The notes under the pieces are model-generated. The model did not search any database. It was not told where the DNA came from and worked only from the letters and a program-made list of their open reading frames with translations. 64,000 nucleotides of DNA from an uncultured Elusimicrobia bacterium (GTDB taxonomy: Bacteria > Elusimicrobiota > Elusimicrobia > Elusimicrobiales > UBA9959), in assembly GCA_903867985.1 (NCBI GenBank), contig CAIPTO010000029.1, positions 65 to 64,064 of the forward strand, written 5' to 3'. The stretch's first letter is position 1, and every line of letters begins with the position of its first letter. Below, one piece after another: positions 12,527 through 59,142 of this stretch. A program made the position numbers and the translations under genes.

Positions 12527-12655
12527 CAAGTCGCGGGGTCCTGCCAGCCATGGGACCCATCGGGCCTGCGACCGGCCCGGCGACTTCGCGCCGGTTCCTT
12601 CTCGACCCGATCCAACCCATGGCTGTCACCCCTTATTACCCCGCACAAATTTACA
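12527..12655 (+). repeat. Structured repeat, copy A (core 12545-12625)
   Basis: Copy A is near-identical to 13583-13760 apart from a 46-nt indel. The outer stem is CAGCCATGGG/CCCATGGCTG and the inner stems are ATCGGGCC/GACCCGAT and CCGGCG/CGCCGG. Confidence 0.8.
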
Positions 12656-12702: not shown

Positions 12703-13512
12703 TTAGGGTTTATAGTACTTCATCGCTTCTGGCATCCAGCCTTCAATATCCTTTATTCTGGTCTCGTGGCCGGGGTGGGTGGAAAGATATTTGGCAAGAG
12801 GAGAATCGGGGGATTTGGTGGCGGCTTCCATACGTTTCCAGAAATCCAGAGCGGCGTGCGGATCATAACCGGCTTTGGCCATAAGTATCAGGCCTATGTG
12901 ATCCGCCTCTGACTCGTGCGAGCGGCTGAAAGGGAGCATAACTCCCACGTTCATTCCCACACCGTAGGCTTTAGAGAAGGCGCCCTGCACTTCAGGCGTT
13001 TTGTTGGAAAGCGCCACGCTCAATATTTTGCTCCCGATCCCGGCGGCCATTCCCTGGCTCATTCTTTCGGAGCCATGCCGGGCCAGCGCGTGGGCTATTT
13101 CATGGCCCATAACTACGGCCAAACCGGCTTCGTCTTTGGCCACGGGGAGCAGCGCGGTGTAAACAGCCACTTTCCCTCCGGGAAGGCAGAAAGCGTTTAT
13201 TTGCTTTTCATCCTCTATCAGATTAAATTCCCATTTGAACTGGGGAGGCGCGTCCGATACTTTGGCCAGACGGGCACCCACCCTTCTGACCAGCGCGGTC
13301 TTTTCGGCGTCGGCGGACAGTTTTGAACTTTTAAGCACCGCCGCGTAAGATTCGTCGCCCATCTTTACCTCTTCCGATTCGGAGACCAGGAGCATATGCT
13401 TGCGCCCGGTGTATGGTACGCTGGAACAGCCCCACAGCATAAGCGCAGCCGCAAAGTAGAATATAATTTCGATTCTTGTTATCATAAGTTCATCCGGTTT
13501 TTTATTATACAT
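12703..13512 (-). CDS. M48 family metallopeptidase lipoprotein (LoiP/YcaL-like)
   Basis: The zinc motif HEIAHALARH is present, with a lipobox-like LWGC. An alternative start lies at 13485. Confidence 0.85.
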   Translation of the reverse strand: MYNKKPDELMITRIEIIFYFAAALMLWGCSSVPYTGRKHMLLVSESEEVKMGDESYAAVLKSSKLSADAEKTALVRRVGARLAKVSDAPPQFKWEFNLIEDEKQINAFCLPGGKVAVYTALLPVAKDEAGLAVVMGHEIAHALARHGSERMSQGMAAGIGSKILSVALSNKTPEVQGAFSKAYGVGMNVGVMLPFSRSHESEADHIGLILMAKAGYDPHAALDFWKRMEAATKSPDSPLAKYLSTHPGHETRIKDIEGWMPEAMKYYKP

Positions 13513-13582: not shown

Positions 13583-13760
13583 AGGGTTCGCGGGTCCGGC
13601 CAGGCATGGGACCCATCGGGCCTGCGGCCGGCCCGGCGACTGACCTATGGGCGTGCCGCAACAGGGCCTATGGCCAACAGGCGGCCTTCGCGCCGGTTCC
13701 TTCTCGGCCCGATCTAACCCATGGCTGTCACCCGCTCCACTTACACCGCCAAGAATGTAT
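13583..13760 (+). repeat. Structured repeat, copy B (core 13601-13727, with a 46-nt insertion at 13641-13686)
   Basis: Copy B is a direct repeat of copy A. The insertion sits exactly in the apical loop of the CCGGCG/CGCCGG stem. Confidence 0.8.
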
Positions 13761-13967
13761 CCTTCCAAATCACATTGGCCGGGTCCTTTTCCTTTATTCG
13801 GAGCGGTGAAAATGCTAAAATATGTTATAGCACTATAGCATCGCCGAAGCAGTCCGCCCTGCCAGCTTCCTAGCGCATGTTTCCCGGATAGTATTTATCC
13901 CCAAGGCTGTAAAAAATATGCGGGCCAAAGTATATTGTCGCGGCATCATGTCGCGGAATGTTTCACT

Positions 13968-15785
13968 ATGATAACCATCAAGAATATATATAAGTCATTT
14001 TCTTCACAATCCCTGTTCGAGGGGGCGTCTCTACAGATAAACGAAGGGGAGCGTTTCGCGCTGGTCGGGCCCAACGGTTCCGGGAAGTCCACGCTTTTTA
14101 AGATGATGCTTCGCGAAGAAGAGGCGGACGACGGGGAAATACAGTTCAAGAAGAACGTCGTAGTGGGTTATTTGCCGCAGGAGAACGCCCCAACTACGGA
14201 ACGCACGGTAGTGGATGAAACTCTGGACGGCGCGGAGGACTTTGACGGTCGCAAGGGCGCCGAAGCCAAGGCTGTTCTGATGGGACTCGGTTTCAAAGTT
14301 TCCGATTTCGGCAGGCATGTTAACACGCTTTCCGGCGGATGGGCTATGCGCGTGGCAATGGCCAGGCTTCTGGTGAAAAAACCGGATCTGCTGCTCCTGG
14401 ACGAGCCTACAAATCATCTGGACCTTGACGCTCTATTGTGGCTGCAGGATTATCTGGCGGCTTACCAGGGAGCGGTTTTCGTCATTTCCCATGACCGTTC
14501 ATTTATCAATACCGTCTGCAACGCCATTATCTCCGTTCAGGATAAAACACTTCGCGCCTATTACGGGGATTACGAGCATTTTCTCAATCAGCGCCAGTCG
14601 GAGAAAGACAAGATACTCTCACAATGGAAGCAGCAGCAGGACGATATCGCCCAGATGAAGGACTTCATCTTCCGCAACAGGGCGCGCGTTTCAACCGCGT
14701 CCCGTGTGCAGAGCATGATCAAGCGGCTTGACAAGCTTGAGCTGGTGCAGGTACCGGAAGACACCAAAACGGTCAAGATACGCTTTCCGCAGCCCGGCCG
14801 GACCGGAACAAAAGTTCTGGAGCTGAAGGACATAAGCAAAATTTACAATGTCCCCGGCCACGAACCCATACGGGTATATGAAAATTTCAGTTTTGAGCTT
14901 TACCGCGGACAGAAAATGGCTTTTGTCGGTCATAACGGCGCCGGTAAATCAACGCTGCTGAAGATGCTGGCTGGCGTGATAGAGCCGGATTCCGGAGAGC
15001 GCATCCCCGGCCTGAACGTAAAGACCGGCTATTTTTCTCAGCATCGGGAAGGCATACTCGAGCCGCGGCACACCGTTCTGCAGGAAGCCATGGATAACGA
15101 CAGGATGAACCCCGAGCTTACAGTGAGGACCGTGCTCGGAACCTTCCTGTTCCCGGGCGATAATGTTTACAAAAAAACGGCTGTGCTCAGCGGCGGAGAA
15201 AAAAGCCGGCTGATGCTGGTGAAACTGCTGCTGGACCCGCCGAACGTTATATTGATGGACGAGCCCACCACGCACCTCGATATGCCCAGCGTGGACGCGC
15301 TTATCGGAGCGCTGAAAGAATTTGAGGGCACGCTTTGCTTTATCAGCCACGATTTATATTTCATAAACGCCCTGGCCGACTCCGTGGTGCACGTTGAAAA
15401 AGGAAAGACCACCGTTTATCCAGGCAACTACGATTATTTTCGTCACCGTCAGATGACTATGCAGGCGGAATTGGCGGCGGCCGCCCCTTCAGGCGAGAGG
15501 GCTAAGCCTTCGGAAGCACGCGCTGACACGGCGGCCTGGGAAGAGAAGAAGCGTCAGGAGGCGGAGGCCCGCAAGCGTTCACGCCGGGGCGATACGCTTA
15601 AAAAAGATATAGCCTATTCCCGGAAAACCATTGAGACGCTGGCCGCAAAGATGTCCTCGCCTGAAATTTATTCGGATTATCAGCAGGTTAAAGAACTGGG
15701 GGATAAGATACACGCCCTTGAAGCCAAGGTCGCCGCGGCCCTGGAAGAGCTGAAGACGCTGGCTGAAAGTTGCCATCAGCCATAA
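13968..15785 (+). CDS. ABC-F family ATPase (Uup/EttA-like)
   Basis: It has two ABC cassettes (GPNGSGKST, GHNGAGKST; LSGGW..., LSGGEKSRL), no TM domain and a charged C-terminal coiled coil. I chose the ATG at 13968 over the TTG at 13935. Confidence 0.9.
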   Translation: MITIKNIYKSFSSQSLFEGASLQINEGERFALVGPNGSGKSTLFKMMLREEEADDGEIQFKKNVVVGYLPQENAPTTERTVVDETLDGAEDFDGRKGAEAKAVLMGLGFKVSDFGRHVNTLSGGWAMRVAMARLLVKKPDLLLLDEPTNHLDLDALLWLQDYLAAYQGAVFVISHDRSFINTVCNAIISVQDKTLRAYYGDYEHFLNQRQSEKDKILSQWKQQQDDIAQMKDFIFRNRARVSTASRVQSMIKRLDKLELVQVPEDTKTVKIRFPQPGRTGTKVLELKDISKIYNVPGHEPIRVYENFSFELYRGQKMAFVGHNGAGKSTLLKMLAGVIEPDSGERIPGLNVKTGYFSQHREGILEPRHTVLQEAMDNDRMNPELTVRTVLGTFLFPGDNVYKKTAVLSGGEKSRLMLVKLLLDPPNVILMDEPTTHLDMPSVDALIGALKEFEGTLCFISHDLYFINALADSVVHVEKGKTTVYPGNYDYFRHRQMTMQAELAAAAPSGERAKPSEARADTAAWEEKKRQEAEARKRSRRGDTLKKDIAYSRKTIETLAAKMSSPEIYSDYQQVKELGDKIHALEAKVAAALEELKTLAESCHQP

Positions 15786-15872
15786 GCCTTAAGCCATATG
15801 CCATAGGGTATAAGGAAAATCCTTAAAAGCTTATGGCATAAAGCATACGGCTTATGGCAATAGCATATATGC
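15781..15872. repeat. Intergenic fold-back element, GGCATA/TATGCC word class
   Basis: The arms are built from 7-8 nt units (CATAAGCC TTAAGCC ATATGCC ... TTATGGC ATAAAGC ATACGGC TTATGGC). CATAAGCC pairs with GGCTTATG. Confidence 0.7.
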
Positions 15873-15898: not shown

Positions 15899-17737
15899 AT
15901 GCAACAAGATAACGCAAAGCGCAGGCAGGACCTGCGGAACATCGCCATCATCGCCCACGTCGACCACGGCAAAACGACAATGCTGGACGCGATGCTCAAG
16001 CAGACAGGCGCTTTCAAGGACAAGAGCGGCGAGTCGCGCGAGTGTATAATGGATTCCAACGATTTGGAACGCGAGCGCGGCATCACCATCCTTTCAAAAA
16101 ACACCGCGGTCAAATATAAAGATACGGCTATCCACATAGTGGATACCCCCGGCCACGCCGACTTTGGCAGTGAAGTTGAGCGCGTGCTGCGCATGGTGGA
16201 CGGCGTCCTGCTTCTTGTGGACGCGCTGGACGGGCCAATGCCCCAGACCCGCTTCGTGCTCAAGAAAGCCCTGGCTCTTGGCATCAGACCCATCGTAGTA
16301 GTAAACAAGGTTGACCGTCCCAATTGCGATCCGCACGCAACGCTGGATAAGGTCTTTTCGCTTTTTATGGAACTGGGCGCCAGCGATTACCAGCTGGATT
16401 TCCCTACCGTTTATGCCGTTGGCCGGGACGGCTGGGCCTCCAAGGACTATAAGATCAAGACCAATGACCTCTCTTATCTCTTTGAGACCATTATAAAGTA
16501 TGTGCCCGGCCCGCTGGACAAGGATTCCGAGCCCCTGCGGATGCTGGTGACCATGCTGGACTACAGCTCTTACACCGGGCGCATAGGTATCGGACGGATC
16601 TTCCAGGGCACAGTTTCCACAGGGGCTATGATATCCCTTGCTTCGCCTATATCTAAGCCGGTCACACGCAAGGTCGTGCAGCTCATGGGGTTTAAGGGGC
16701 TTACGCGTGTGCCCGTGCAGACGGCGCGTTCGGGAGATATCGTGGCAATGGCCGGTCTCGAGGGAATAGAGGTCGGAGACACGGTTTCAAGCGCAGAGAA
16801 CCCGGGCGTTCTGCCGGGGCTTGAGATAGAACTGCCGACTCTTGCCATGGAATTTTACGCCAACGACGGGCCTTTTTCCGGCCGGGACGGAAAATTCGTG
16901 ACCATCACCCAGCTCCGCGAGAGGCTTTACCGCGAGCAGCAGATAAATGTGGGCCTTAAAGTGGAAGATATATCCGGTCAGGCCGGCTTTAAGGTTTCAG
17001 GCCGCGGTGAACTGCATCTTTCCATACTTATTGAAACCATGCGCCGGGAAGGTTATGAACTTTGCGTTTCCAAGATGGCTGTCATTACGCATCAGGAGAA
17101 TGGCGTAACCGTGGAGCCGGTGGAATACCTGGTCGCGGACGCCCCCACGGAGTTTCAGGGAGCCACGATGGAAGCGCTGGGCCGCAGAGGCGCCCAGATG
17201 AAAGACATGAAGGTTTGTGACGACGGGCGCGTACGCTTTGAATATGTCGTTTCTTCAAGAGCGCTTATCGGTTTTAAGTCGGAGTTTATGACATTGACCA
17301 AGGGTTCCGGTCTGATGCATCATAACTTTCACGGTTTCATGCCCGAGGGCGGGTTCCAGCCCCCGAAACGTAACGGGGTGTTCATCACCAAAGAGTCTGG
17401 CAAGACCGCCGGTTACGCGCTTAACGGACTTCAGGATCACGGCATAATGTTCGTGAGTCCAAATCAGGATGTCTACTCCGGCCAGGTTGTGGGTGAACAT
17501 TGCCGTTCCAACGATCTTGTGGTGAATCCCTGTAAGGAAAAGAAGCAGACTAATATGCGGTCTTCCACTTCTGATATGTCCATAACCCTTACGCCTCCGC
17601 TCAATATGAGCCTTGAGCAGGCTATTGAGTATGTGGAAGAGGATGAGTTCGTGGAAGTGACTCCTAAATCACTGCGCCTGCGCAAAAAAGTGCTGGATCA
17701 TTCATTACGCAAAAGAGGCGAGAAGGAATACGTCTAG
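15899..17737 (+). CDS. typA: Translational GTPase TypA/BipA
   Basis: G-domain motifs AHVDHGKTT, DTPGH and NKVD are present. The protein is 612 aa and has a strong SD (AAGGAG). Confidence 0.95.
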   Translation: MQQDNAKRRQDLRNIAIIAHVDHGKTTMLDAMLKQTGAFKDKSGESRECIMDSNDLERERGITILSKNTAVKYKDTAIHIVDTPGHADFGSEVERVLRMVDGVLLLVDALDGPMPQTRFVLKKALALGIRPIVVVNKVDRPNCDPHATLDKVFSLFMELGASDYQLDFPTVYAVGRDGWASKDYKIKTNDLSYLFETIIKYVPGPLDKDSEPLRMLVTMLDYSSYTGRIGIGRIFQGTVSTGAMISLASPISKPVTRKVVQLMGFKGLTRVPVQTARSGDIVAMAGLEGIEVGDTVSSAENPGVLPGLEIELPTLAMEFYANDGPFSGRDGKFVTITQLRERLYREQQINVGLKVEDISGQAGFKVSGRGELHLSILIETMRREGYELCVSKMAVITHQENGVTVEPVEYLVADAPTEFQGATMEALGRRGAQMKDMKVCDDGRVRFEYVVSSRALIGFKSEFMTLTKGSGLMHHNFHGFMPEGGFQPPKRNGVFITKESGKTAGYALNGLQDHGIMFVSPNQDVYSGQVVGEHCRSNDLVVNPCKEKKQTNMRSSTSDMSITLTPPLNMSLEQAIEYVEEDEFVEVTPKSLRLRKKVLDHSLRKRGEKEYV

Positions 17738-17808
17738 AATTTTATGCCGTTCAATGTTGAAATAAAAGCCCTTGCCGCTAAAACTCCGGTCTTGTATACT
17801 ATATTTAA

Positions 17809-22530: not shown

Positions 22531-22539
22531 TTCTATAAC

Positions 22540-22572
22540 AAAAAGCCGTCCGCATCATGCGGACGGCTTTTT
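22540..22572. terminator. Bidirectional intrinsic terminator between convergent genes
   Basis: The sequence is AAAAA-GCCGTCCGC-ATCAT-GCGGACGGC-TTTTT. Confidence 0.8.
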
Positions 22573-22590
22573 GTTATCTTGAAGCGGGAA

Positions 22591-23637: not shown

Positions 23638-24174
23638 ATGAGGAACAAGGCTATTTCTGTTTTTATCCTGTTTTTTTTGGGCGCCTGCGGCCCTTACAAA
23701 CATGCGGTCCAGCCCCCCGCCGGATCTGAAGGTGAGTTCATTCTGTCCTCAGCTGATTTCAGGGATAATAATCTTATGCCGCGCGCTTTTGCGTGCGACG
23801 GGATAAATATTTCTCCGGCCCTGAAGTGGAACGGCGTCCCTTCAGGGGTGAAGAGCTTTATACTGACCATGCGATCCCCTGACTCGGCAAGCGGCGATTT
23901 CCTTCACTGGGCGGTGGTTGATATCCCGGCTGCGGTAAGAGGGGTTGAAAGAAATGCCAAATTCCCGCCCAATTCCAGGGAACTTAAGAATGATTTTACG
24001 ACTTCAGGCTACTCCGGCCCCTGCCCGCCTTCAGGGTCGTCTTACCGCTATGTTTTTACTCTGTACGCCGTAGATGCCGTAAGGTTTAACGACTCCCCGG
24101 CTCCGCTTGATGATTTTCTTAAGGGCCATACTCTGGCTAAAGCAGTGCTCACCGGCATTTACAAGAAGAGATGA
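23638..24174 (+). CDS. YbhB/YbcL (PEBP) family lipoprotein
   Basis: The lipobox is LGAC, and [23 protein letters not shown] is the PEBP signature. Confidence 0.85.
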
Positions 24175-24797
24175 ACTCCATGCGTATAATTGAAGACATC
24201 CGGACGGTATTCAGTGAGGATCCCGCGGCGCGCAGCTTCCTGGAAGTGCTCACCTGTTATCCAGGCCTTCATGCGGTATGGCTGCATCGCGTTTCGCACC
24301 GTCTCTGGACGCTGGGCCTGCGGTTGCCGGCGCGGCTTCTCTCGCAGATCGGTCGTGCCCTGACCGGCATTGAGATACACCCCGGCGCTACGATCGGCAG
24401 ACGCTTTTTTATAGATCACGGCATGGGTGTCGTTATCGGCGAGACTACTGAGATAGGGGACGATGTGCTGATGTATCAGGGCGTAGTAATGGGCGGCACC
24501 TCTCTGGAGAAAAAGAAAAGGCATCCGACCGTCGGTAACAAGGTCGTGATAGGAGCGGGGGCCATAGTTTTAGGAGCCATCGTCATCGGAGATCACGCCC
24601 GTATCGGCGCCGGCTCAGTAGTGCTGAAAGATGTGCCCCGCGACACCACTGTTTTCGGTATTCCCGCCAAGGCAAGGGACGGCGGCATCGGGGAAGCGGC
24701 TCAACTGGACCATAATAAACTTTTTGACGTCTGTGGTGAGGAGATAAAAGTTTTGCGCGCCGAAGTTGACGAGCTGAAGAAAAAGTTGGCAGACTAG
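24171..24797 (+). CDS. cysE: Serine O-acetyltransferase
   Basis: Hexapeptide repeats and [27 protein letters not shown] are present. It overlaps the upstream gene by ATGA. Confidence 0.9.
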
Positions 24798-24930
24798 CAG
24801 TCTGGAGGCACAGCCAACCAGCAACTTGGATGTAAAGCAATCCAGCAGTTTAGATACCAGGTAACTGGCAATTTAATTAACGCCAGGCCACTAAATTGCT
24901 TTACATCCAAACTGCTTTGCCTCTGAACCG
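24798..24930. repeat. Intergenic fold-back element, GGATGTAAAGCA word class
   Basis: TTGGATGTAAAGCAAT (24826-24841) pairs with ATTGCTTTACATCCAA (24895-24910). The element shares the boundary words GCAGTCTGGA and CTGCTTTGCCTCT with 32815-32945. Confidence 0.75.
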
Positions 24931-24961: not shown

Positions 24962-25894
24962 ATGAAATATGCTGAAAATATAACAAATCTTATCGGCAAC
25001 ACGCCTCTGGTCAGGATAAATCGCGTGGCGGGTGCCGGCCCTGGCATGGTTCTGGCTAAACTTGAATACTTTAACCCGATGTCCAGCGTTAAAGACCGCA
25101 TAGCCATGGCGATGCTTGATGCGGCGAGCCGTAGCGGGTTAATAAAGGAAAAAAGCCTTATAATTGAGCCCACAAGCGGCAATACCGGCATAGGCCTGGC
25201 TTTTATCTGCGCGGTGCGCGGCTACAGGCTTATGCTGACCATGCCGGAGACTATGAGCGTTGAAAGGCGCAAAATACTGAAGGCCCTTGGCGCGGAAATC
25301 GTTCTTACTCCCGGAGCCGGGGGGATGAAGGGGGCGATAGCAAAAGCTGATGAGCTTCTGGCCGCCAATCCCGGCGCTTTTATGCCCCAGCAGTTTGAAA
25401 ATCCGGCCAATCCGGAGATACACAGGAAGACCACCGCGGAAGAGATTTGGAAGGACACTGACGGTGCGATAGATTATTTTGTGGCCGGGGTAGGTACCGG
25501 CGGGACTATTACCGGAGTTTCGGAAGTCCTGAAAAAGCGCCGGCCCGGAGTCAGAGTAGTCGCGGTGGAACCATTTACTTCTTCTGTCCTCTCAGGGGAA
25601 CCGGCAGGGCCGCATAAAATACAGGGCATAGGCGCAGGGTTCGTGCCGGCCGTGTTCAACAGAGAGAATATAGACGAAATTATCAGGGTTCGTGACGATG
25701 AGGCCGGGCGTATGGCTAGGCGTCTGATGGCCGAGGAAGGGATATGCGCCGGGATCTCAGGCGGGGCCGCCATGCATGCCGCGGTTCTGGTGGCCGCCAG
25801 GCCGGAAGCCGCAGGTAAGGTTATTGTAGTCCTGCTGCCGGACAGCGGCGAGCGCTATCTGAGCACCTGGCTGTATGATACACCAGAGGACTAG
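24962..25894 (+). CDS. cysK: Cysteine synthase A (O-acetylserine sulfhydrylase)
   Basis: The PLP Lys context NPMSSVKDR is present, with [10 protein letters not shown] and GTGGTITG motifs. I moved the start to the ATG at 24962, outside the repeat. Confidence 0.9.
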
Positions 25895-25962
25895 AGGACT
25901 GGAGGACTGGGGACCGCCCTACATGCTAATCCTCTAATCTTCTAATCTTCCAATCCTCTAAT
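25885..25962. repeat. Intergenic element, AGAGGACT / CYTCYAAT octamer class
   Basis: The left arm is (AGAGGACT)x3 and the right arm is CCTCTAAT CTTCTAAT CTTCCAAT CCTCTAAT. The cysK stop TAG (25892-25894) lies inside the left arm. Confidence 0.75.
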
Positions 25963-28644: not shown

Positions 28645-28656
28645 CATTTTTAAATT

Positions 28657-28693
28657 AAAAAAACCGCGCTTATATAAAAAGCGCGGTTTTTTT
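28657..28693. terminator. Bidirectional intrinsic terminator
   Basis: The sequence is AAAAAAA-CCGCGCT-TATATAAAA-AGCGCGG-TTTTTTT, lying between convergent genes. Confidence 0.8.
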
Positions 28694-28740
28694 ATGTCAT
28701 TTTTATGTTCAGCCTGAAAATTGCAGCTGCAAGTAACTGA

Positions 28741-30102
28741 TCAGCCGGCCTTGGTCTGATACTTGTAGGCGAATTTGGAGCGTTTGTGGGGGGGCGTTAT
28801 CTGGTGCTCCGACCACTCAAAGTTCTTGCCGGCTATCCTTATCTGGTCCCCGGGCAGCACTCCAGCCTTCTTCAGGGCCTTGTCCAGGCCGATAAGCTTA
28901 AAGATCCGCCTGAGGCGGTTGATAGAGTCGGGCTGGTTGAAGTTGGTCATGGCTATTATGGTTGTCAGAGTGTCGCTATTAGCCTCCATCAGGCCGTCCT
29001 CAGCCATGCTTATCGTGAAACCTTCTTTTACCGGCTTGTGCAGGGCTGTTGCGTCCAGGTCCAGTTCCGGTTTATATACCACCGGTTCCTTTATTTTGGG
29101 CAGGAGGGCTATTATGTAGTCCAACAGGCCTGTAACCCCGAGCCCGGTGGCCGCGGAGATAAGGAACACGGGGTGTTTTTTATATTTTTTTGCGAGAGCC
29201 GCGTGAACTTTCTTCGCCTCGGGAAGATCGGCTTTGCTGACCGCTATGATGCGCTGTTTCTTTGCCAGTTCGGGATGATAAGTCTTTAGCTCTTTTGCGA
29301 TTACCGCCACCGAGTCTACTGGCTTGAATTTGCCGAATCCCGCCGGGTCCACCAGGTGTATCAGCATCTTGGTTCTGAGAACATGCTTTAAAAACAGATC
29401 TCCCAGGCCCTTACCCTCGTGCGCGCCCTCAATCAGGCCGGGTATGTCGGCCGCGGCAAAACTCTTGCCCTTGTGGGATACTATGCCCAGATGGGGGCTG
29501 AGCGTGGTGAAGGGGTAAGCCGCGATCTTTGGCTTTGCGGCGGAGATGGTGGAGAGAAGGGTGGATTTGCCGGCGTTGGGAAAGCCCACCAGACCCACAT
29601 CCGCCAGAACGCTCAATTCCAGATCGGCGGTGAATTCCTGGCCCGGCTCACCATTTTCAGAGATTTTTGGAGCGGTATTGAACTTAGTCTTAAAAGAGGT
29701 GTTTCCGCGCCCTCCGCGTCCTCCGCGGGCGGCGAGGAATCTGTCCCCGTGGGATTTCAGGTCCGCTACCACGCGGCCTTCAAATTTTACGAGGGTGCCG
29801 CACGGCACATACATCAATATATCCGCGCCCTTAAGGCCGCTCATGTTCTTGCTCTGGCCCGGCCCGCCTTCAGTGGCTCTGATATGTGGGTGGTTGGCAA
29901 TTTCATGCAGCGTGGTGATATTGGTGGAAGCCTCGAAATATATATCGCCGCCCTTGCCGCCGTTCCCGCCGTTGGGGCCGCCGTAGGGCACGAATTTCTC
30001 TCTGCGGAAGGAGGCGCAGCCGTCTCCGCCTTTCCCCGCCCGCAAATAGACCCTGGCGGTATCGACGAAATCAGTGCGTTCGGAATGTCCTTGTTTTTGC
30101 AT
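28741..30102 (-). CDS. obg: GTPase Obg/CgtA with a C-terminal OCT-like extension
   Basis: The Gly-rich Obg fold (GGDGCASFRREKFVPYGGPNGGNGGKGGDIY) is followed by the G-domain motifs GFPNAGKST and DIPGLIEGA. Confidence 0.95.
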   Translation of the reverse strand: MQKQGHSERTDFVDTARVYLRAGKGGDGCASFRREKFVPYGGPNGGNGGKGGDIYFEASTNITTLHEIANHPHIRATEGGPGQSKNMSGLKGADILMYVPCGTLVKFEGRVVADLKSHGDRFLAARGGRGGRGNTSFKTKFNTAPKISENGEPGQEFTADLELSVLADVGLVGFPNAGKSTLLSTISAAKPKIAAYPFTTLSPHLGIVSHKGKSFAAADIPGLIEGAHEGKGLGDLFLKHVLRTKMLIHLVDPAGFGKFKPVDSVAVIAKELKTYHPELAKKQRIIAVSKADLPEAKKVHAALAKKYKKHPVFLISAATGLGVTGLLDYIIALLPKIKEPVVYKPELDLDATALHKPVKEGFTISMAEDGLMEANSDTLTTIIAMTNFNQPDSINRLRRIFKLIGLDKALKKAGVLPGDQIRIAGKNFEWSEHQITPPHKRSKFAYKYQTKAG

Positions 30103-30436: not shown

Positions 30437-30560
30437 AATTAAAAACCTCGTTGTTGCGTTGTGCGCGCCTGATCATTCAGATTGTTTAGTTATAGGCCGG
30501 TAGTATCTGCGACTTACCTTACAGCCTGGTCACCTGCAACCTGTTAATTCCGGCGATTGT

Positions 30561-30959: not shown

Positions 30960-31685
30960 ATGAGCAACTTTCCAAGGATTCCGGTGCTGGTCTACCATAA
31001 GATAGCCGGTCCCTCCGAATATGACGCCAATCCAAACACCTGTGTCACACCCGCCAATTTTGAGAGGCAGATGGATCTTATGGCCCTGATGGGGTACAAA
31101 ACCGCGGATCCCGCGGAATACTTTAAGGCCAGGCTGGGCCTGGCGTCCAGACTCCCTAAAAAGCCGTTTCTTATAACTTTTGACGACGCCTTTGAAAGCG
31201 TGTTGACCCGGGCGCTGCCGGTTTTGGAAAAGAAGGGCTTTTCCGCCGCGCTCTTTATGGTTTCGTCCGGCTTTGGCCGCAGCGCTTTCTGGGACGAAGA
31301 AACCGATGATTCACCCAACAGACTGCTTGAACCGTCCGGGCTTAAAAAGCTCAGGGACGCGGGTTGGGTGATAGGTTCCCACGGCGTTTCCCACCGTAAT
31401 TTTACAGATCTGGACTGCACCTCGCTGAAGGACGAAGCTTCCCTTTCAAAAAAAGAGCTGGAGGAGGCGCTGGGGTCAGAAGTCTCATGGTTCGCTTATC
31501 CTTACGGGGCTTATAGTCCGGAGGCTAAACGCGCCCTGGCCGAGGCCGGTTATACGATGGGTTTTGCCACTGAGGAGGGGGACGGCGGCCTCTTTTCCGT
31601 CCCGCGCCGCATTATCAGCGGGAAAAGCGGGCTTTTAAATTTCGCCTTACGCCTGCGTCAGGCGGGGAAGATATCTATCCGATGA
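30960..31685 (+). CDS. Polysaccharide deacetylase (NodB homology) family protein
   Basis: The TFDDAFES motif is present, with conserved His (GSHGVSH). I preferred the ATG at 30960 over the TTG at 30951. Confidence 0.8.
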   Translation: MSNFPRIPVLVYHKIAGPSEYDANPNTCVTPANFERQMDLMALMGYKTADPAEYFKARLGLASRLPKKPFLITFDDAFESVLTRALPVLEKKGFSAALFMVSSGFGRSAFWDEETDDSPNRLLEPSGLKKLRDAGWVIGSHGVSHRNFTDLDCTSLKDEASLSKKELEEALGSEVSWFAYPYGAYSPEAKRALAEAGYTMGFATEEGDGGLFSVPRRIISGKSGLLNFALRLRQAGKISIR

Positions 31686-32839
31686 ACCTCGCACTGATCC
31701 TGCACGCGCTTTCAGTTAACAATGGCGTATCGCGGGTTGTCTTGTCGCATGCCCGGGAATTTTCCGCGGCGGGGCATGAGACCCATATTTATGCTTCCCG
31801 CCTGCTCCTGTCGGAAGAGGATAAAAAAAATATTCCTCATAACGTTTTTCTGCACAGGTTCCCCTGCCTGCGCGGATCCAACAGGATCTGGGCAACGCCT
31901 TTTGGGGCGCTTCTGCCGTTTCTTAATAGCAGTCATGATCTGGTTATCAGCCATCTGCTGACCGTCTGGCAGGATGTTATCGTAATGCATAACGATCCGC
32001 AGCCGGTGGAGGTGGAAAAGATGTCGCTCGTGCCGTTCACTATAGATCGGCCGCGACTGCGCACAAAAAACAGGTTCATACGGACTTTTATAGAGGGGAA
32101 GCGTTTTGCTCCGGAGCGCTATAAAAGCGTGGTGGCTTTTTCAGGGCGTTCCGCCGCAGAGATAGCCAGGGTATACGGTGTCCCCCATGAGCGGATAAGG
32201 AGGATACGGCACGGGGTTGACTCCTCGCGGTTTTCGCCGGCCTGGCGCATGGCCCGCCGCGCATCCGCGCGCTCGTCGCTGTCCCTGTCCTCCGACGAGC
32301 TTGCTTTTGTTTACATCGGCGATTCCTGGAAAGGGCTTGAATTCGCCATTAAGGGTATTGCCGCCGCCTGTTGCGGTAAAAAAAGCGTTCTCATAGCGTC
32401 CGGGCCTTTTCACGGAGAGCAATTCTCCGCCCTGGCAGGCGAACTGGGGTTAAAGCTGATCTGCAAAAATGATTGGTCCGATATACGCGATCTTTACAGC
32501 GCTGGAGACGTCTTTATAAATCCGACGCCCATGGACACTTTCGGTCTGGCGGCGCTTGAAGCGATGGCGATGGGGCTTGCAATAATTACCACCAAATATG
32601 CGGGGGTAAGCGAATTTTTTAAAGACGGAGAGAACGCTTTCATACTTGAATGTCCCTGGGATACGCAGGCGATCGCGGACATGGCCGATCGCCTTTGGGA
32701 TCCGGCTTTCAGGGATAGTGTCTCCTGCAGGGGCGCCGAACTGGCCGCCGGACTTTCCTGGGAGAAGCCGGCCCGTGACCACCTTGCGCTCTATCGGGAA
32801 ATAATAGAGGCAAGGCAGTCTGGATGTAAAGCAATTTAG
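31682..32839 (+). CDS. Glycosyltransferase family 4 (GT-B)
   Basis: The C-terminal GT1/GT4 motif is FGLAALEAMAMGLAIITT. It overlaps the upstream gene by ATGA, and its last 8 codons lie inside the repeat element. Confidence 0.8.
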   Translation: MNLALILHALSVNNGVSRVVLSHAREFSAAGHETHIYASRLLLSEEDKKNIPHNVFLHRFPCLRGSNRIWATPFGALLPFLNSSHDLVISHLLTVWQDVIVMHNDPQPVEVEKMSLVPFTIDRPRLRTKNRFIRTFIEGKRFAPERYKSVVAFSGRSAAEIARVYGVPHERIRRIRHGVDSSRFSPAWRMARRASARSSLSLSSDELAFVYIGDSWKGLEFAIKGIAAACCGKKSVLIASGPFHGEQFSALAGELGLKLICKNDWSDIRDLYSAGDVFINPTPMDTFGLAALEAMAMGLAIITTKYAGVSEFFKDGENAFILECPWDTQAIADMADRLWDPAFRDSVSCRGAELAAGLSWEKPARDHLALYREIIEARQSGCKAI

Positions 32840-32945
32840 CTGCGAGAAGCAAAGCCTATAGATGTAAAGCGGTCTAGCTAAATTGCCGGCCTGCTTTGCC
32901 TCTCGGTTGCTAGATCGCTTTGCATCTAAGTTGCTGAACTGCTGC
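32815..32945. repeat. Intergenic fold-back element, GGATGTAAAGCA word class
   Basis: TAGATGTAAAGCGGTCTAGC pairs with GCTAGATCGCTTTGCATCTA, and GAGAAGCAAAGC pairs with GCTTTGCCTCTC. It is the same family as 24798-24930. Confidence 0.75.
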
Positions 32946-33065
32946 TACTCTACCGATGCCCGAAAGGCCTAGTAAATCCAGGGCCGTTAGCCACTTACAG
33001 CCCGGCTGTTTTTAAGCGATACTATAAAAGCAGCCGGGGATAAAGTAATTGGAGAAATTATTATT

Positions 33066-33590: not shown

Positions 33591-33723
33591 AGAATGCCGC
33601 TTGCAGAACAACTGCTGCTCTGCTGTTTTACGGCATTCATAGCGCAAAGTGCCGGGACTTTTGTATTTGCATGCCGGTTCCGGAAGTAATAAAATAGAGT
33701 CGTTAAGTAACCTTGGAGGTGAT

Positions 33724-34410: not shown

Positions 34411-34446
34411 AAGAAGTTTGGTGAATTAGCGAGTTTTATAACAAAC

Positions 34447-34478
34447 AAAAAGGCCCGGAATTTATTCCGGGCCTTTTT
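34447..34478. terminator. Bidirectional intrinsic terminator
   Basis: The sequence is AAAAA-GGCCCGGAA-TTTA-TTCCGGGCC-TTTTT. Confidence 0.8.
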
Positions 34479-34505
34479 AATTGTTTGCTATCTGATACTC
34501 ACGCG

Positions 34506-38327: not shown

Positions 38328-38346
38328 AAATATCACCACCTTCTTT

Positions 38347-38437
38347 AGAGGGCTGGAGGATTGGAAGACTAGAGGACTGGTTAACAAGGACGAACCTTAT
38401 GTCGTCAGTCCTAAACATGTTGGTCTTACTTTCCTCT
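38347..38437. repeat. Intergenic element, GGAGGAYTGG word class
   Basis: The left arm is CTGGAGGA TTGGAAGA CTAGAGGA CTGG. The right arm CAGTCCT...GGTCTT...TTCCTCT is partly complementary. The words match those at 25885-25962. Confidence 0.6.
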
Positions 38438-38473
38438 TTTAAAATCTGGTCACACTGCCTGCATCAGCTGTTT

Positions 38474-47284: not shown

Positions 47285-47325
47285 GAAGGGTATAGGGGTC
47301 AGGGGACAGGGTATAGAAACAGGGA
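47285..47325 (+). repeat. G-rich heptad array (orphan arm) with a G-quadruplex motif
   Basis: The units are GAAGGGT ATAGGGG TCAGGGG ACAGGGT ATAGAAA CAGGGA. The G4 motif is GGG-TATA-GGGG-TCA-GGGG-ACA-GGG. Confidence 0.7.
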
Positions 47326-51175: not shown

Positions 51176-51778
51176 ATGATCCAGACTGTGGTGCTTGCCA
51201 CCCGCAATAAGCATAAGTTGGGGGAAATACTGGACCTTATTCCCGGGCTTAATCTTATAATGAAGACGCTTGAAGATTTTCCCGGCGCTCCGGACGTGAT
51301 AGAGGACGGGGAAACTCTTGAAGCGAACGCGGTCAAGAAAGCGAAAAGTGCCGCTCTTTTCTGTGGCCTTTGGGCGCTCGCTGACGACACTGGGCTTTAT
51401 GTTGACGCGCTGGGGGGTGCCCCCGGTGTTTATTCTGCCAGGTATGCCGGCTCCGGATGCTCTTATACCGATAATAACCGTAAACTTCTTGGCGAACTTG
51501 CCGGTCTTGGACCGGAAAAGAGGACGGCTCGCTTCTGCTGCGTTATGGCGCTGTCTTCTCCTGGCGGTTCTGTGATAGCGGTCGAGGGCCGGCTTGAAGG
51601 CGTAATAGCGTCTGCCGCTTCTGGCACCGGCGGCTTCGGTTATGATCCGTTGTTTATCGTGGCGGGACTCGGCAAAACTTTGGCGGATATTACTGCTGAG
51701 GAGAAGAACGCTCTAAGCCATCGTGCCGACGCTATCAGGAAAATAACTCCCTGGCTGACAAGGCTTTCCGATAGCTAG
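51176..51778 (+). CDS. rdgB: Non-canonical purine NTP pyrophosphatase (RdgB/HAM1)
   Basis: Motifs ATRNKHKLGE, ADDTGL and GFGYDPLF are present. Confidence 0.9.
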   Translation: MIQTVVLATRNKHKLGEILDLIPGLNLIMKTLEDFPGAPDVIEDGETLEANAVKKAKSAALFCGLWALADDTGLYVDALGGAPGVYSARYAGSGCSYTDNNRKLLGELAGLGPEKRTARFCCVMALSSPGGSVIAVEGRLEGVIASAASGTGGFGYDPLFIVAGLGKTLADITAEEKNALSHRADAIRKITPWLTRLSDS

Positions 51779-51851
51779 TTGCGAGATACTACACTAGAAG
51801 CCCGTTGATCACGGATGTTTTGGGGTTGGTGACGCTCTGCGTCGCAGGCCC

Positions 51852-51880
51852 TTGACAAGTCAAGCAGTGTCTGCTATACT
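51852..51880 (+). promoter_or_regulatory. Consensus promoter (TTGACA-N17-TATACT)
   Basis: TTGACA lies at 51852-51857 and TATACT at 51875-51880. No CDS follows within about 250 nt. Confidence 0.6.
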
Positions 51881-51886
51881 TGGTGT

Positions 51887-52031
51887 AGCGAGCAACGATT
51901 CATGAGGGAGGCAAGTGAGCTCCTGGTGTGTTACGGGTGGCAGCCTGTAAGGTGTGACGCTCGCGCAGCGTACTGAGGGAACACGAAAAGGCGGTGTAGT
52001 GATAGCGATCTTTTCGTGTTTCCTTGTTTTT
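51887..52031 (+). ncRNA. Candidate small RNA (class unknown)
   Basis: It is bounded by the consensus promoter and an intrinsic terminator (14-bp stem 51977-51990/52010-52023 plus TTGTTTTT). An internal stem GCGAGC/GCTCGC is present. Confidence 0.5.
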
Positions 52032-52129
52032 ATTTATTCAGACCTGTTATAACCCAGTAGCTCCCGCGGTCTCCGTGCCTTATCGGCCTCGGGCTTTTTT
52101 CGCGGCGCCAATTAAATTATAATCTCCTT

Positions 52130-53770
52130 ATGAATAAAGCGGCACGATTGTCCGCGCTTCTGGCTTTTGGGCTTTTCTGGGCCTATGGCACTTTGGCCGC
52201 TTCTTCCGGCGCGCAGGGCCCCGCCACTGTCTGGGACCGCATAATGCAGGAGCAGAGCCTGATGAATTTGCGTAAGGGTTATCTGCTGATGGAAGCCGAG
52301 AAATATCCTGAAGCCGCCAACGAATTCCTTAAAGCCATCGCCAGGACTCCTTCGGAGCCTTATGCGCGCATTCTTTACGGGTCCAGTCTCTACTGGCTGG
52401 GCGATCCGGACAAGGCCATGGCGGAGTTCGCTGCAGCCGAGAAGCTGGACCCCGGCAATGCGGTCGCCTTTCAACTAATGGGCATAGTCCACGCCTGGAA
52501 AGGAGAATTCCAGCAGGCGCTCGCGAAATTCCTCAGGGCCAGGGATTTGGCCCGGGATCGGGCGGATGTCAGGATGAACATCGGATCCATATATCATTCC
52601 CTCGGAGATATGGATAAGGCTTTAGAGTATTTCAGAGAGGCGGTCAGGCTTGAGCCCGCCAATCCGCTCTACCTGTATCAGCTTGGCCTGCTCTACTCCA
52701 GACTGGGCCGCGTTTTCGAAGCCAAAGCCGCTTTCAGGAGCGCGTTGTCTTCGTTCCGGAATTACGAGGACGCTATGCTGGAACTGGCCGTTATGGAAGA
52801 GAAGGACGGCAACGATAAGGAGGCCGAGCGGTTATACCATAAGGCTCTGGATATAAAGCCTGGCGATAATGTCGCGCGCTTTCGTCTGGGCTGCCTGCTT
52901 TACAGGACGGGCGACGTGAAGCGCCTTGACGCTCTCTTGGAGGACGCCTTCCTCCTGACCCCGTCCAACGCGAAAGGCGGTATCTCCATCAGCCTTGCTT
53001 ACGCGGGCGACCCCGACCCGCAACCTGGCGGGGGGAAGCCAGGCTCTCTTGAGGACGCCGTGTCCAAGATCCCGGCCGATGAGGATGTTAATATAAAGGC
53101 TGAGTTTATCTCTATCCCGGAAACGCGCCTTGTGTTGCAGTCAGAAGGGAAACCGAAAACGCTCAAGGCTGGTCTGGAGCAGAATTTTAGGCGCCCGCAG
53201 GTAACTGTGTTCCGGCGCGAGTATTCCCTTCCTGCCTCCGATTTTAGGAATCGCAAAGCACGGGCCGCCCAGATCGCGGCTGAAATGGATAAAGCGATAA
53301 AGGCCGCGGCCCGGGAAGGACAGGACACGCGTATGTCCATAAATATCGAGACCAAGAAGGCCTCGCTGAGCGCCGCCGGCGGAGATCCAGGCGTTGTTTA
53401 TAAGCCGCGCGATGTCGGCAACGATATGGGTCTTTGGGTTATGGGGGCCAACTGGCTTGAGAATGTTGCGGATGCGCTTGAGGATATGCGGGAAGCTCCC
53501 GGCGGCGCCGCGCCGGATTTCAGACTGAGCATGCTGCGGGGGCTTGGCAGCCTTATCATGGGCGAACCGGACGCCGCGCTCGCGGATATGGATGGAGTGC
53601 AGGCCGGAGCGGCCGGGGATCTGGGGCGCTGTGCGGCCTGGGTGGAAAAGGGTTCACAGGAGAACGCCCTGGCGGCATGTTCGGACGCGCTCAGGAAAGA
53701 ACCGAAAAATAAGATCGCGTTAGCTAATAAAAAATGGCTGACACGGGGTCCGGAGAAGATCAAAAATTGA
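52130..53770 (+). CDS. Secreted TPR-repeat protein
   Basis: A signal peptide is followed by several TPR motifs (for example LGDMDKALEYFREAVRLEPAN). Confidence 0.65.
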   Translation: MNKAARLSALLAFGLFWAYGTLAASSGAQGPATVWDRIMQEQSLMNLRKGYLLMEAEKYPEAANEFLKAIARTPSEPYARILYGSSLYWLGDPDKAMAEFAAAEKLDPGNAVAFQLMGIVHAWKGEFQQALAKFLRARDLARDRADVRMNIGSIYHSLGDMDKALEYFREAVRLEPANPLYLYQLGLLYSRLGRVFEAKAAFRSALSSFRNYEDAMLELAVMEEKDGNDKEAERLYHKALDIKPGDNVARFRLGCLLYRTGDVKRLDALLEDAFLLTPSNAKGGISISLAYAGDPDPQPGGGKPGSLEDAVSKIPADEDVNIKAEFISIPETRLVLQSEGKPKTLKAGLEQNFRRPQVTVFRREYSLPASDFRNRKARAAQIAAEMDKAIKAAAREGQDTRMSINIETKKASLSAAGGDPGVVYKPRDVGNDMGLWVMGANWLENVADALEDMREAPGGAAPDFRLSMLRGLGSLIMGEPDAALADMDGVQAGAAGDLGRCAAWVEKGSQENALAACSDALRKEPKNKIALANKKWLTRGPEKIKN

Positions 53771-53807: not shown

Positions 53808-55241
53808 ATGAATGAGACATCGGATTTCAATTTCAGCGAAATAAAAAAAGCGTATTTTATAGGTATAGGCGGCATAGGCATGAGCGGAATTGCCCGTCTG
53901 CTGCTTAAAACCGGCGTGAAGGTAAGCGGGTCGGACCTGAAAGAATCGGAGATTACCAGGATACTGAAGGCTGAAGGCGCGCGGGTATTTATCGGGCACA
54001 GGATTTCCAATATCCTTGCCCCGCACTTTGGTTCGGGGCGTACGAGACAAAATGCAGGGGGCGATCCCGATGTGGTTGTGATAAGTTCCGCAATCAAAGC
54101 CGGAAATCCAGAACTTGCGGCTGCAGTGAAAAAAGGGATGAGGATCGTACCCCGGGCCCAGATGCTGGCCAAACTTGCCTCGTCCAAAAAAACCGTTACC
54201 GTCAGCGGTTCACACGGCAAGACCAGCACAACATCCATGCTCGCCTCGGCACTTGAAGGCGCGGGGGTGGACGCCACGGTCGTAGTCGGGGGATTGTTCA
54301 AAAATATAGGCTCGAATATTAAAATAGGCGCGGGTGAATATCTGGTGGCTGAGGCGGATGAGTCCGACGGATCTTTCCTTTATTTTAATCCGCTGGTTAC
54401 CTGTGTTACCAATATAGATTCCGATCACCTGGATTTTTACAAGGACATGACTAACCTTAAAACGGCATTTTTGGCGCATATTGCCAAGGTTCCTTTCTAT
54501 GGCGCGGCCGTTGTCTGCGCCGATGATCCAGGCGTGGCGTCCATTCTGGGCGCGGTTGAAACCACGCTTATAACTTACGGCTGCAGATCGGGCTCTGACT
54601 GGGTCGCTAAAAATCTGAAGTCCGGCCCGGCGGGGTTGGTTTATGACGCTTATTTCAGGGGTAAGAGGATGGGCCGGGTAGCGCTCAGGTCAGGCGGACG
54701 CCATAACGCCCTCAATTCTTTGGCCGCGCTGGCCGCCGGGCGCTACCTCGGTTTTGATTTTGCCGGACTTGTTAAGGGGCTTGCGAACTTTAAGGGCGTA
54801 AAGCGCCGTATGGAAAATATCGGTGAATATGCCGGGGTGACATTTTTGGATGATTACGGACATCATCCCACCGAAATAAAAGCAACTCTCGGGACCGTCC
54901 CGGAGATGTACAAGGGCCGGGGCAGGCTCATAGTCTTGTTCCAGCCTCACCGCTATTCCAGGACCGGAATTCTCCGGCGCGAATTCCCCGCCGCCTTCGA
55001 TCAGGCAGACCTTACTTATGTTATGGATATCTATGCCGCCGGAGAAAAGCCGCTGCCCGGAGTAACCTCGGAACTTATACTGGCCGGCCTGAAGGAACGC
55101 GGCCTTAAAGCGGAAAAATTCCCCGGCGCGATGGAGATAGCTAAGAACCTGCGGGCGGGAGATGTCCTGATTACTGTCGGGGCCGGCGATGTTTGGAAGT
55201 TCGGCGAAGAGATAAAACTGAAGTTGCAAACAATATGTTAG
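53808..55241 (+). CDS. murC: UDP-N-acetylmuramate--L-alanine ligase
   Basis: FIGIGGIGMSGIARLL, the GSHGKTSTTSM P-loop and the Mur ligase C-terminal domain are present. Confidence 0.95.
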   Translation: MNETSDFNFSEIKKAYFIGIGGIGMSGIARLLLKTGVKVSGSDLKESEITRILKAEGARVFIGHRISNILAPHFGSGRTRQNAGGDPDVVVISSAIKAGNPELAAAVKKGMRIVPRAQMLAKLASSKKTVTVSGSHGKTSTTSMLASALEGAGVDATVVVGGLFKNIGSNIKIGAGEYLVAEADESDGSFLYFNPLVTCVTNIDSDHLDFYKDMTNLKTAFLAHIAKVPFYGAAVVCADDPGVASILGAVETTLITYGCRSGSDWVAKNLKSGPAGLVYDAYFRGKRMGRVALRSGGRHNALNSLAALAAGRYLGFDFAGLVKGLANFKGVKRRMENIGEYAGVTFLDDYGHHPTEIKATLGTVPEMYKGRGRLIVLFQPHRYSRTGILRREFPAAFDQADLTYVMDIYAAGEKPLPGVTSELILAGLKERGLKAEKFPGAMEIAKNLRAGDVLITVGAGDVWKFGEEIKLKLQTIC

Positions 55242-55324
55242 GGTAGAGGGGATAGGGTTGAGGGTAAAGTTATAAGGAGCTCCTTACCCTGAACCCTAAA
55301 CCCTAAACCCTGAACCCTTACCCT
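55240..55324 (+). repeat. Intergenic heptad fold-back element, GGGT/ACCC class, with a G4 motif
   Basis: The left arm is GGGTAGA GGGGATA GGGTTGA GGGTAAA, the apex palindrome is TAAGGAGCTCCTTA, and the right arm is CCCTGAA CCCTAAA CCCTAAA CCCTGAA CCCTTA CCCT. It fills the entire murC-rsmA spacer. Confidence 0.8.
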
Positions 55325-59125: not shown

Positions 59126-59142
59126 GATTTGAGGAGAACGAC

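Follow-up and report, generated by a model that had tools for sequence, protein, structure and literature searches.

What kind of DNA fills the spacer between cysE and cysK and recurs some 8 kb further on, at the end of a glycosyltransferase gene, in an uncultured Elusimicrobia bacterium? The question is raised by a stretch of 64,000 nt of contig CAIPTO010000029.1 (assembly GCA_903867985.1), hereafter the window, in which two strong imperfect fold-backs, E1 (24792-24928) and E2 (32802-32952), are built from a 16-nt word, RTYTAGAKGYAAAGCA, and an 8-nt short form, RTYTAGCA. The answer that we favour, with confidence slightly better than even, is that E1 and E2 are oppositely oriented members of a selfish or neutral repeat tolerated at gene ends. 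This repeat would resemble repetitive extragenic palindromic (REP) sequences and bacterial interspersed mosaic elements (BIMEs) or the short tandemly repeated repetitive (STRR) sequences.

Two fold-backs in opposite orientation

The two elements lie where the original prediction had placed a pair of long fold-backs, and the sequences that it quoted are found there. In E1, TTGGATGTAAAGCAAT (24826-24841) is the perfect complement, at 16 of 16 positions, of ATTGCTTTACATCCAA (24895-24910) and forms with it the core stem of the minimum-energy fold. In E2, 18 of 20 positions agree between TAGATGTAAAGCGGTCTAGC (32859-32878) and the complement of GCTAGATCGCTTTGCATCTA (32909-32928). Within the 64-kb window exact family words are confined to these two sites. 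The motif RGAWGYAAAGC has six exact matches, all within E1 or E2, against 0.41 expected, a count reached by none of 100 shuffles, and the five matches to the 16-nt consensus with at most one mismatch (0.41 expected) also fall within them. Either strand folds far below the energy of shuffled sequences: the two strands of E1 reach -48.3 and -60.0 kcal/mol (z about -5.2) and those of E2 -57.6 and -50.1 kcal/mol (z -3.7 and -3.3). E1 recurs base for base, and the E2 word block without change, in independently assembled sequences of other samples; the elements are thus not assembly artefacts.

The left arm of E1 (24792-24875, plus strand) has a period of 24 nt and was delimited from the sequence, the word spacing and the word parsing, which runs GACTAGCA / GTCTGGAGGCACAGCC / AACCAGCA / ACTTGGATGTAAAGCA in the first part and ATCCAGCA / GTTTAGATACCAGGTA / ACTGGCA / ATTTA in the remainder. 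The right arm (24891-24928, plus strand), of 16-nt period, reads CTAAAT / TGCTTTACATCCAAAC / TGCTTTGCCTCTGAAC. Between them lies a 15-nt apex loop, ATTAACGCCAGGCCA (24876-24890, no strand assigned), recognised by comparison with the orthologous locus L059 of the metagenome-assembled genome (MAG) Elusimicrobiota ELA399 (GCA_037137395.1); the loop breaks the zero-loop apex ATTTAG/CTAAAT usual in the family, and the apex of L059 is intact (ATTTAG/CTAAAC). E2 is a single fold-back with its apex between 32877 and 32878 (GTCTAG/CTAAAT). Its left arm (32802-32877, plus strand) was defined from the sequence, the orthologues L058 and L059 and a covariance model, and has the 16-nt period (TAATAGAGGCAAGGCA / GTCTGGATGTAAAGCA / ATTTAGCT GCGAGAAGCAAAGCC / TATAGATGTAAAGCG / GTCTAG). 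The right arm (32878-32952, plus strand), defined from the sequence and the word spacing and with an outer end kept in L058 and L059, has the 24-nt period (CTAAAT / TGCCGGCC / TGCTTTGCCTCTCGGT / TGCTAGAT / CGCTTTGCATCTAAGT / TGCTGAAC / TGCTGCTACTCTA).

The two sites had been thought to begin with a shared 10-mer, GCAGTCTGGA. Its exact matches in the window are indeed limited to 24797 and 32815, and it proved to be an interior feature, the junction ...GCA/GTCTGGA... of two tandem words; E2 begins a word earlier, about 13 nt further 5', at about 32802, inside the glycosyltransferase gene. Likewise CTGCTTTGCCTCT, whose exact matches are confined to 24912 and 32891, proved to be the complement of the word AGAGGCAAAGCAG. 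Identical boundary words could not be upheld; the outer ends vary between copies and the conserved part is the apex with a two-word block. The 11-12-mer earlier taken for the unit was replaced by the 16-nt word with its 8-nt short form.

The original prediction did not include the orientation of the elements. The 16-nt arm comes first in E2 and second in E1, and the two are therefore oppositely oriented. The start of the E2 left arm has its reverse complement in the right arm of E1, which carries exact consensus words on the minus strand, and the covariance model scores E2 at 75.3 bits on the plus and 51.7 bits on the minus strand, and E1 at 62.5 bits on the minus and 45.3 bits on the plus strand. 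This opposite orientation accounts for the longest inverted match of the whole window, which joins E1 to E2 (24891-24924 with 32806-32839, 34 nt, 94%). An inverted repeat of this kind, 7.9 kb apart and formed by elements that lie just after open reading frames (ORFs) as attC sites do, could also mark recombination sites, either attC-like or the ends of an invertible segment, around the 8-kb block from cysK to the glycosyltransferase gene. This is very improbable. The gene order of the block, which consists of housekeeping genes, is the same in relatives with and without the elements, neither the window ORFs nor the annotated related loci revealed an integrase or recombinase, and the words do not fit the attC cores RYYYAAC and GTTRRRY. 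An invertible or cassette-like 8-kb segment was rejected on synteny.

A family of asymmetric word arrays

The unit of the family is the 16-nt word R-T-Y-T-A-G-A-K-G-Y-A-A-A-G-C-A, of which the short form RTYTAGCA lacks the middle eight bases. One arm has a period of 16 nt and consists of words only, and the other has a period of 24 nt, made of a word plus a short form; the arrangement is clean in about 20 of 26 elements. At locus L003, for instance, Tandem Repeats Finder returned a period of 16 with 6.4 copies and, for the other arm, a period of 24. Some 20 independent loci besides E1 and E2, in one Elusimicrobiales MAG and on related metagenome contigs, are built in this way. Forward words precede their complements in all 32 non-redundant word clusters, and the usual apex is the zero-loop palindrome ATTTAG/CTAAAT. 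Elements span 44 to about 240 nt with one to eight words per arm, and the arms are often very unequal, as in L025 (eight words against one or two). A test for symmetric palindromes, with the arms in register around the apex, found nothing because the arm periods differ (16 and 24 nt), and a fixed symmetric palindrome was rejected as a model for the family.

In a profile of 240 words taken over all loci, left and right arms agree: positions G6, A7, G9, A11, A13, G14 and C15 are conserved at 94-98%, and six others alternate freely between two states. Seven positions so constant over many loci and several genomes, in arms of identical profile, on symmetric strands and at a regular spacing of 16 or 24 nt, would suit an array of binding sites for a DNA- or RNA-binding protein, nucleoid or regulatory, with the word as recognition unit and the fold-back as a consequence. 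We consider such an array improbable. There is no candidate protein, the neighbouring genes are functionally unrelated, and related genomes carry arrays of unrelated words at the same junction, which is hard to square with one specific binder. CsrA-type GGA motifs were set aside, only about a quarter of the words containing GGA.

Trained on 15 apex regions, the covariance model finds all elements, those outside its training set included. Besides E1 and E2, its only matches in the window, it returns about 30 further element matches (orthologues included), and the proposed family thus has more than two members. A scan of one genome per species with GCARYYTGGATGTAAAGCAAT found three loci, all in the MAG ELA399; a match in a Paludibacteraceae gene was a single chance match and was excluded. 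In metagenomes, a scan for two adjacent words found 36 loci, of which 24 are multi-word fold-backs on contigs of 50-55% G+C and one duplicates another. The remaining 11, roughly as many as expected, were excluded as isolated chance matches within coding sequence of unrelated organisms. The nearest named relatives of the CysK of the window, and of a LepA that adjoins one of the metagenome elements, are Elusimicrobia or Elusimicrobiales. The covariance model detected no elements in 100 kb of more distant Elusimicrobiales (L009, L011, L017-19, L056 and L057), and BLAST gave no match to the family in phage and plasmid collections. The single pattern match on a viral contig was an ordinary ribosome-binding site, and a link to phages or plasmids was dropped. 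In the window, only two tRNAs reach the gathering score of Rfam 15; at permissive thresholds E1 resembles the generic hairpin mir-5928 (24.9 bits against 59 needed) and E2 has no match. As far as seen, the family is apparently restricted to one clade of uncultured Elusimicrobiales, where its loci adjoin unrelated housekeeping genes in both orientations.

Placement at gene ends and stop codons

Among the 27 elements with two called neighbours, 23 sit between co-directional genes. The hairpin extends from the stop codon to about 30 nt short of the next start, which leaves the leader free. The expectation that copies abut or overlap stop codons was borne out: 18 of 25 upstream stops are TAG, the word's own RTYTAG, seven are TAA and none is TGA, against a background at the same loci of 26% TAG and 30% TGA (p = 2e-6 for the TAG excess and 1.5e-4 for the absence of TGA). 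The 16-nt period means that successive words present the stop in successive reading frames. Stop-codon polarity as the cause of the forward-words-first order was rejected because the complementary words also hold TAA, TAG or TGA (CTAAAT, CTAGAT, CTGAAC).

At E1, the upstream gene is cysE (serine acetyltransferase; 24171-24797, plus strand), identified from the ORF list and from Hexapep Pfam matches on orthologues. Its TAG stop (24795-24797) lies inside the first short form of the element, GACTAGCA (24792-24799). The downstream gene is cysK (24962-25894, plus strand), for which an alternative start, TTG 24896, falls within the right arm of E1. Comparison of homologues places the true start at ATG 24962, as had been supposed earlier: CysK homologues have 306-312 aa and the N-terminus MKYA, and ATGAAATA is kept in all orthologues, including those, free of the element, in which cysE overlaps the same ATG.

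At E2, the GT4 glycosyltransferase gene (31682-32839, plus strand; from the ORF and its translation) reads through two words of the element before its stop (GAG GCA AGG CAG TCT GGA TGT AAA GCA ATT TAG). The original prediction was right that the element encodes the tail of this protein and counted eight codons where there are ten: the last ten codons (32807-32836, EARQSGCKAI) and the TAG stop (32837-32839) are made of E2 words. The C-termini of 16 GT4 homologues diverge in sequence and length right after ...HLALYEK. On the 3' side of E2, the segment 32953-33060 (GGCCTAGTAAATCCAGGGCCGTTAGCCACTT...TTTTAAG..ACTATAA) is a conserved block in relatives with and without the element (L018, L019, L058, L059) and is probably the promoter or leader of a 174-aa ORF at 33066.

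In a scan for intrinsic terminators, the coding strand of E1 and E2 gave no terminator-like site, and both elements lack a T run. Canonical GC-stem hairpins with flanking A/T runs, perfect or near-perfect, lie at convergent gene ends of the window at 22535-22577, 28656-28694 and 34440-34485. They look like ordinary bidirectional intrinsic terminators, unlike the word fold-backs.

The placement of the family raises the possibility of a selected intercistronic RNA stem-loop that would tune the neighbouring cistrons, through mRNA processing or stabilisation or through ribosome stalling at the stop, the repeats being secondary. The preponderance of co-directional neighbours and the free leader are in line with such a role. 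So are the strong folding of all orthologues despite word turnover and the use elsewhere of ordinary terminators with GC stem and T run, which makes these hairpins something different. A precedent exists in the cip-cel operon, in which subunit stoichiometry is set by intergenic stem-loops (PMC4423207, PMC10311766). The sense strand nevertheless has no folding gain: in 26 elements it folds better in 12 and the antisense strand in 14 (p = 0.93). Orientation to the genes is random as well, a manual tally of model orientation against gene direction over independent loci giving 10 and 10. Nor do the arms covary specifically; in a permutation test, arm words agreed with complementary words of the same element at 12.2 of 16 positions and with those of other elements at 12.4 of 16, and words within one arm had no excess similarity. 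In addition, the very unequal arms of elements such as L025, the overlapping genes of close relatives at the same junctions and the different word class that the same site can hold are hard to expect of a tuned stem-loop. The lack of a strand, orientation or covariation signal argues against a purpose-built RNA, which we regard as conceivable and on balance rather unlikely.

History at orthologous sites

E1 and E2 stand at the same places in three genomes, those of the window, of Ga0247841_10000615 (about 88% DNA identity) and of ELA399 (about 90%); the orthologous loci are L007/L058 and, in the ELA399 MAG, L059. Their outer ends and apex are kept, and the number of words varies. In the order window, Ga0247841_10000615 and ELA399, E1 has roughly 3/3/5 words on the 24-nt arm and 2/3/5 on the 16-nt arm, and E2 has 4/6/5 on one arm and 2/3/2 on the other, with indels of 31 and 24 nt; the left (16-nt) arm of E2 has six words in L058 and five in L059. 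Elsewhere, a 24-nt indel between GTYTGG repeats, confined to one arm, sets L002 apart from L022, and L025 contains a 64-nt periodic array. Whole-unit indels of this kind bear the signature of slippage or unequal recombination among words.

More distant relatives are devoid of the elements. The cysE and cysK genes overlap at ATGA in L011 and L057 (CysK 84% and 83% identical), and GT4 relatives at 74-83% identity have no E2. In L018 and L019 the GT4 gene is directly followed by the conserved promoter-like block, and in L017 no AAAGCA-class words were found between the GT4 stop and the contig end. E1 and E2 were therefore gained in an ancestor of the three genomes, and comparison of the junctions indicates that one of them, E1, was inserted between formerly translationally coupled genes. 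The idea that a stretch to the right of E1 preserves part of the ancestral 3' end of cysE was dropped, the alignment being unconvincing.

Presence and absence at orthologous sites, fold-back shape and copies at many unrelated loci in both orientations are also properties of a classical MITE (miniature inverted-repeat transposable element), a non-autonomous element with terminal inverted repeats that is mobilised by a transposase in trans. Insertion of such an element at TA would have the consequence that only the TA-containing stops TAG and TAA are seen, and TGA is indeed absent from the 25 upstream stops. We give little credence to this explanation. It is the apex that is conserved and not the ends, since the outer termini vary between copies, whose lengths of 44 to about 240 nt and mosaic composition of words are not those of near-identical full-length units. 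Furthermore, no target duplication is visible at E1 or E2 against the diverged element-free sites compared, and no transposase is present in the window.

The word type of E1 and E2 had been described as a second word class. A discrete class is too rigid a description, because orthologous sites carry different classes across genomes. At the junction of an M48 peptidase gene and efp, the window has a fold-back of heptamers (AGGGTAG; 59040-59128), where ELA399 and Ga0247841 have an AAAGCA-class element. The flanks are about 90% identical, and in either case the tail and stop of the upstream ORF are element-derived. The cysE/cysK spacer of a relative with an 89% identical CysK contains a fold-back of the 8-mer GGATTAAG. 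At the cysK/anmK junction, two sister genomes have an AAAGCA element and the window has a fold-back of the 8-mers TAGAGGAC/CTAATCCT (25886-25962) that supplies the cysK stop. The outermost sequence TAGAGG...CCTCTAAT is common to both kinds of element, and the window fold-back keeps a relic, CGCCCTACAT, of the reverse word CGCTTTACAT. This common outermost sequence and the relic suggest remodelling in place, and one word class thus appears to have been derived from another at the same site. A core TAGAGG is common to three word classes, the 7-mer TAGAGGG, the 8-mer TAGAGGAC and the common variant TAGAGGCAAAGCARTY of the 16-mer.

Origin and expected consequences

On the selfish or neutral reading, the copies would descend from one asymmetric founder by copy-and-paste, a descent suggested by the asymmetric architecture that they have in common, in both orientations and beside unrelated genes. 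A single-stranded hairpin intermediate or recombination, as proposed for REP sequences and for their paired form, the REPINs, may have been the route of copying. The arms would then lengthen and shorten by replication slippage, to which the unit-sized indels of 8, 16 or 24 nt point. Insertions might persist at the 3' ends of genes in that the words bring their own stops and a leader of about 30 nt stays free before the next start. Transcribed within an operon, a hairpin of 45-60 kcal/mol that starts at the stop would break the coupling of the two genes. The analogy of E. coli REPs that lie no more than 15 nt from a stop, on which these expectations for the RNA are based (PMC3733652; PMC12306157; PMC12320835), suggests that it would also hinder termination of the upstream gene and block 3' exonucleases. 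Such effects would be by-products and not the reason for the existence of the element.

Several observations weigh against this reading. Copy-and-paste is deduced from architecture, as neither a target duplication nor a high-identity pair of empty and filled sites was available; no target-site duplication is evident at E1 or E2, for which the element-free sites compared are only 74-84% identical in protein to the window gene, too far diverged for the boundaries to be placed. No transposase, REP-associated tyrosine transposase (RAYT) or integrase is encoded by the 30 window ORFs or by the Pfam-annotated related loci, a search that took in no complete genome. The conservation of G6, A7, G9, A11, A13, G14 and C15 over many loci and several genomes may reflect purifying selection, for example by a binding protein, in place of a spread of recent date. 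With flanks diverged by about 10-12%, the fold-back is still kept and every orthologue is predicted to fold strongly, which fits a selected hairpin. Finally, the strand with the 16-nt arm on its 5' side folds better in 17 of 24 elements, a trend (p about 0.06) in non-independent data.

A stronger reading, which we advance as a doubtful one, is that an active process in the clade may place polar word-array fold-backs at its gene junctions and rewrite them there. It is hinted at by word classes with a TAGAGG core, which reads as a stop codon plus a Shine-Dalgarno-like sequence, by the replacement of one class by another at about 10% divergence and by insertion at ATGA overlaps. If such a process existed, as a dedicated enzyme or as templated writing with both arms switching class together, it would be a new genome-editing activity and could account for how STRR and GGGAATC-type repeats arose in other phyla.

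The origin and spread of REPs, BIMEs, STRRs and the Xanthomonas heptamer arrays have been unclear in the decades since they became known. The junctions described here offer a readable series, from overlapping genes to a fold-back of one class, to gain and loss of words and to another class. The series spans genomes with flanking proteins 74-94% identical and is usable for studying the seeding, growth and arm co-change of arrays. For MAG annotation, gene callers over-extend starts into the elements, as with the cysK TTG 24896, and some C-terminal residues are repeat-encoded rather than native. Operon junctions with hairpins of 45-90 kcal/mol are also to be taken into account, which probably uncouple translation.

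Other repeats and features of the window

The window contains further word arrays. Heptamer arrays with G tracts (AGGGTAG/ACCCTAA type) lie at 47287-47316, 55240-55325, 57922-58000 and 59040-59128 and form a class separate from the 16-nt words. Three are fold-backs with the G-rich arm first, and 47287-47316 is solitary. Each G-rich run has about four G3-4 tracts, a quadruplex-type arrangement as in the GGGNATC repeats of Xanthomonas and Nostoc, and several arrays overlap the upstream stop (TAG 55239-55241) or reach the next start (ksgA ATG 55325). A fold-back of GCCATAA heptamers and their complements occupies 15772-15867, the TAA of its first unit being the stop of an ABC-F gene (13935-15785); L058 and L059 have a related GCCATTx fold-back where the window (33619-33627) has none. 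At 38346-38440 the 8-nt word TAGAGGAC folds back on its complement CTAATCCT or similar words, as at 25886-25962.

Between a Ham1/RdgB gene and a TPR gene, a spacer of 351 nt (51778-52130) contains a consensus sigma-70 promoter, TTGACA-N17-TATACT, at about 51866-51894, some 200 nt whose plus strand folds much more strongly (-135 against -108 kcal/mol) and, at about 52085-52105, a GC hairpin with a T run. We regard it as a small-RNA candidate; even permissive thresholds gave no Rfam match. In the rpmA-rplU spacer, a 74-nt insertion (30481-30554) that is not built from words is absent from L058, L059 and L007. Direct repeats about 1.06-1.1 kb apart (12536-12631 and 13592-13733; 50 nt at 94% and 70 nt at 83%) flank an M48 peptidase gene on the minus strand (12703-13512). 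At 28646-28742, a sister genome has a 4.3-kb insertion (L007 13734-18051, equal to L058 2829-7146) that is absent from the window and encodes fn3, CsgG-like and HTH proteins and small ORFs. In L007, moreover, a MatE gene (1194-2654) takes the place of 24 nt (17737-17760) of the window.

Comparison with known repeat systems

MITEs such as Correia, Nezha and RPE are small non-coding fold-backs dispersed over intergenic positions, occur at an orthologous site in some genomes and not in others, and in some cases lengthen ORFs or provide stop codons. An overview of such elements is given in PMC3184786. The family described here differs from them in the lack of conserved termini and of a visible target duplication, in a five-fold range of length and in the variable number of tandem words inside.

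Cyanobacterial STRR heptamers are here grouped with the arrays of GGGNATC type known from Xanthomonas and Nostoc. The convergent heptamer arrays of Xanthomonas, which lie between aligned ORFs near or over stop codons, are the closest architecture described (PMC4692102). Common to the GGGNATC arrays and the present family are tandem short units, frequently in convergent pairs that form an inverted repeat, a preferred position in spacers of aligned ORFs no more than 50 bp away from the stop codon or overlapping it, a unit number that varies among relatives while the arrangement is kept, and the lack of a link to a transposase (Rehm et al. 2015, PMC4692102). In contrast, the unit here has 16 nt (24 nt in the other arm) instead of 7 and no run of three G, hence no quadruplex potential. 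The family also has a conserved asymmetry of the arms, the apex ATTTAG/CTAAAT and a host of a different phylum.

REPs, BIMEs and REPINs, of the GTAG superfamily associated with RAYTs (PMC3733652, PMC2817692, PMC8266576), are likewise extragenic palindromic DNA of high copy number found at gene 3' ends and in operons, of mosaic make-up and with a repeat-borne TAG as flanking stop. GTAG REPs frequently supply, with their termini, the TAG stop of the flanking ORF (PMC3733652). The likeness extends to the RNA, in that a hairpin near the stop can stall ribosomes and protect the mRNA; according to work cited in PMC12306157, ribosomes stall at REPs that are closer than 16 nt to a stop codon. The units are different. 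A REP is a self-folding imperfect palindrome of 20-40 bp, whereas the word RTYTAGAKGYAAAGCA has no self-complementarity and folding requires the array as a whole. The GTAG/CGTC tag of a REP is unpaired, whereas here (R)TYTAG is present in every word and is paired with the CTARAY of the opposite arm, exact GTAG being found only in some first words, e.g. in L003 and L039.

The TAACTGA heptamer direct repeats of Beggiatoaceae, Cyanobacteria and Bacteroidetes are similar in their stop-containing tandem units, their place in operon spacers, their patchy clade-specific distribution and a mechanism of spread that is unknown (MacGregor 2015, PMC4679880). They are almost always direct and lie just upstream of starts, with 169 direct sets and one indirect (PMC4679880), whereas every element of the family described here pairs a forward array with a complementary one.

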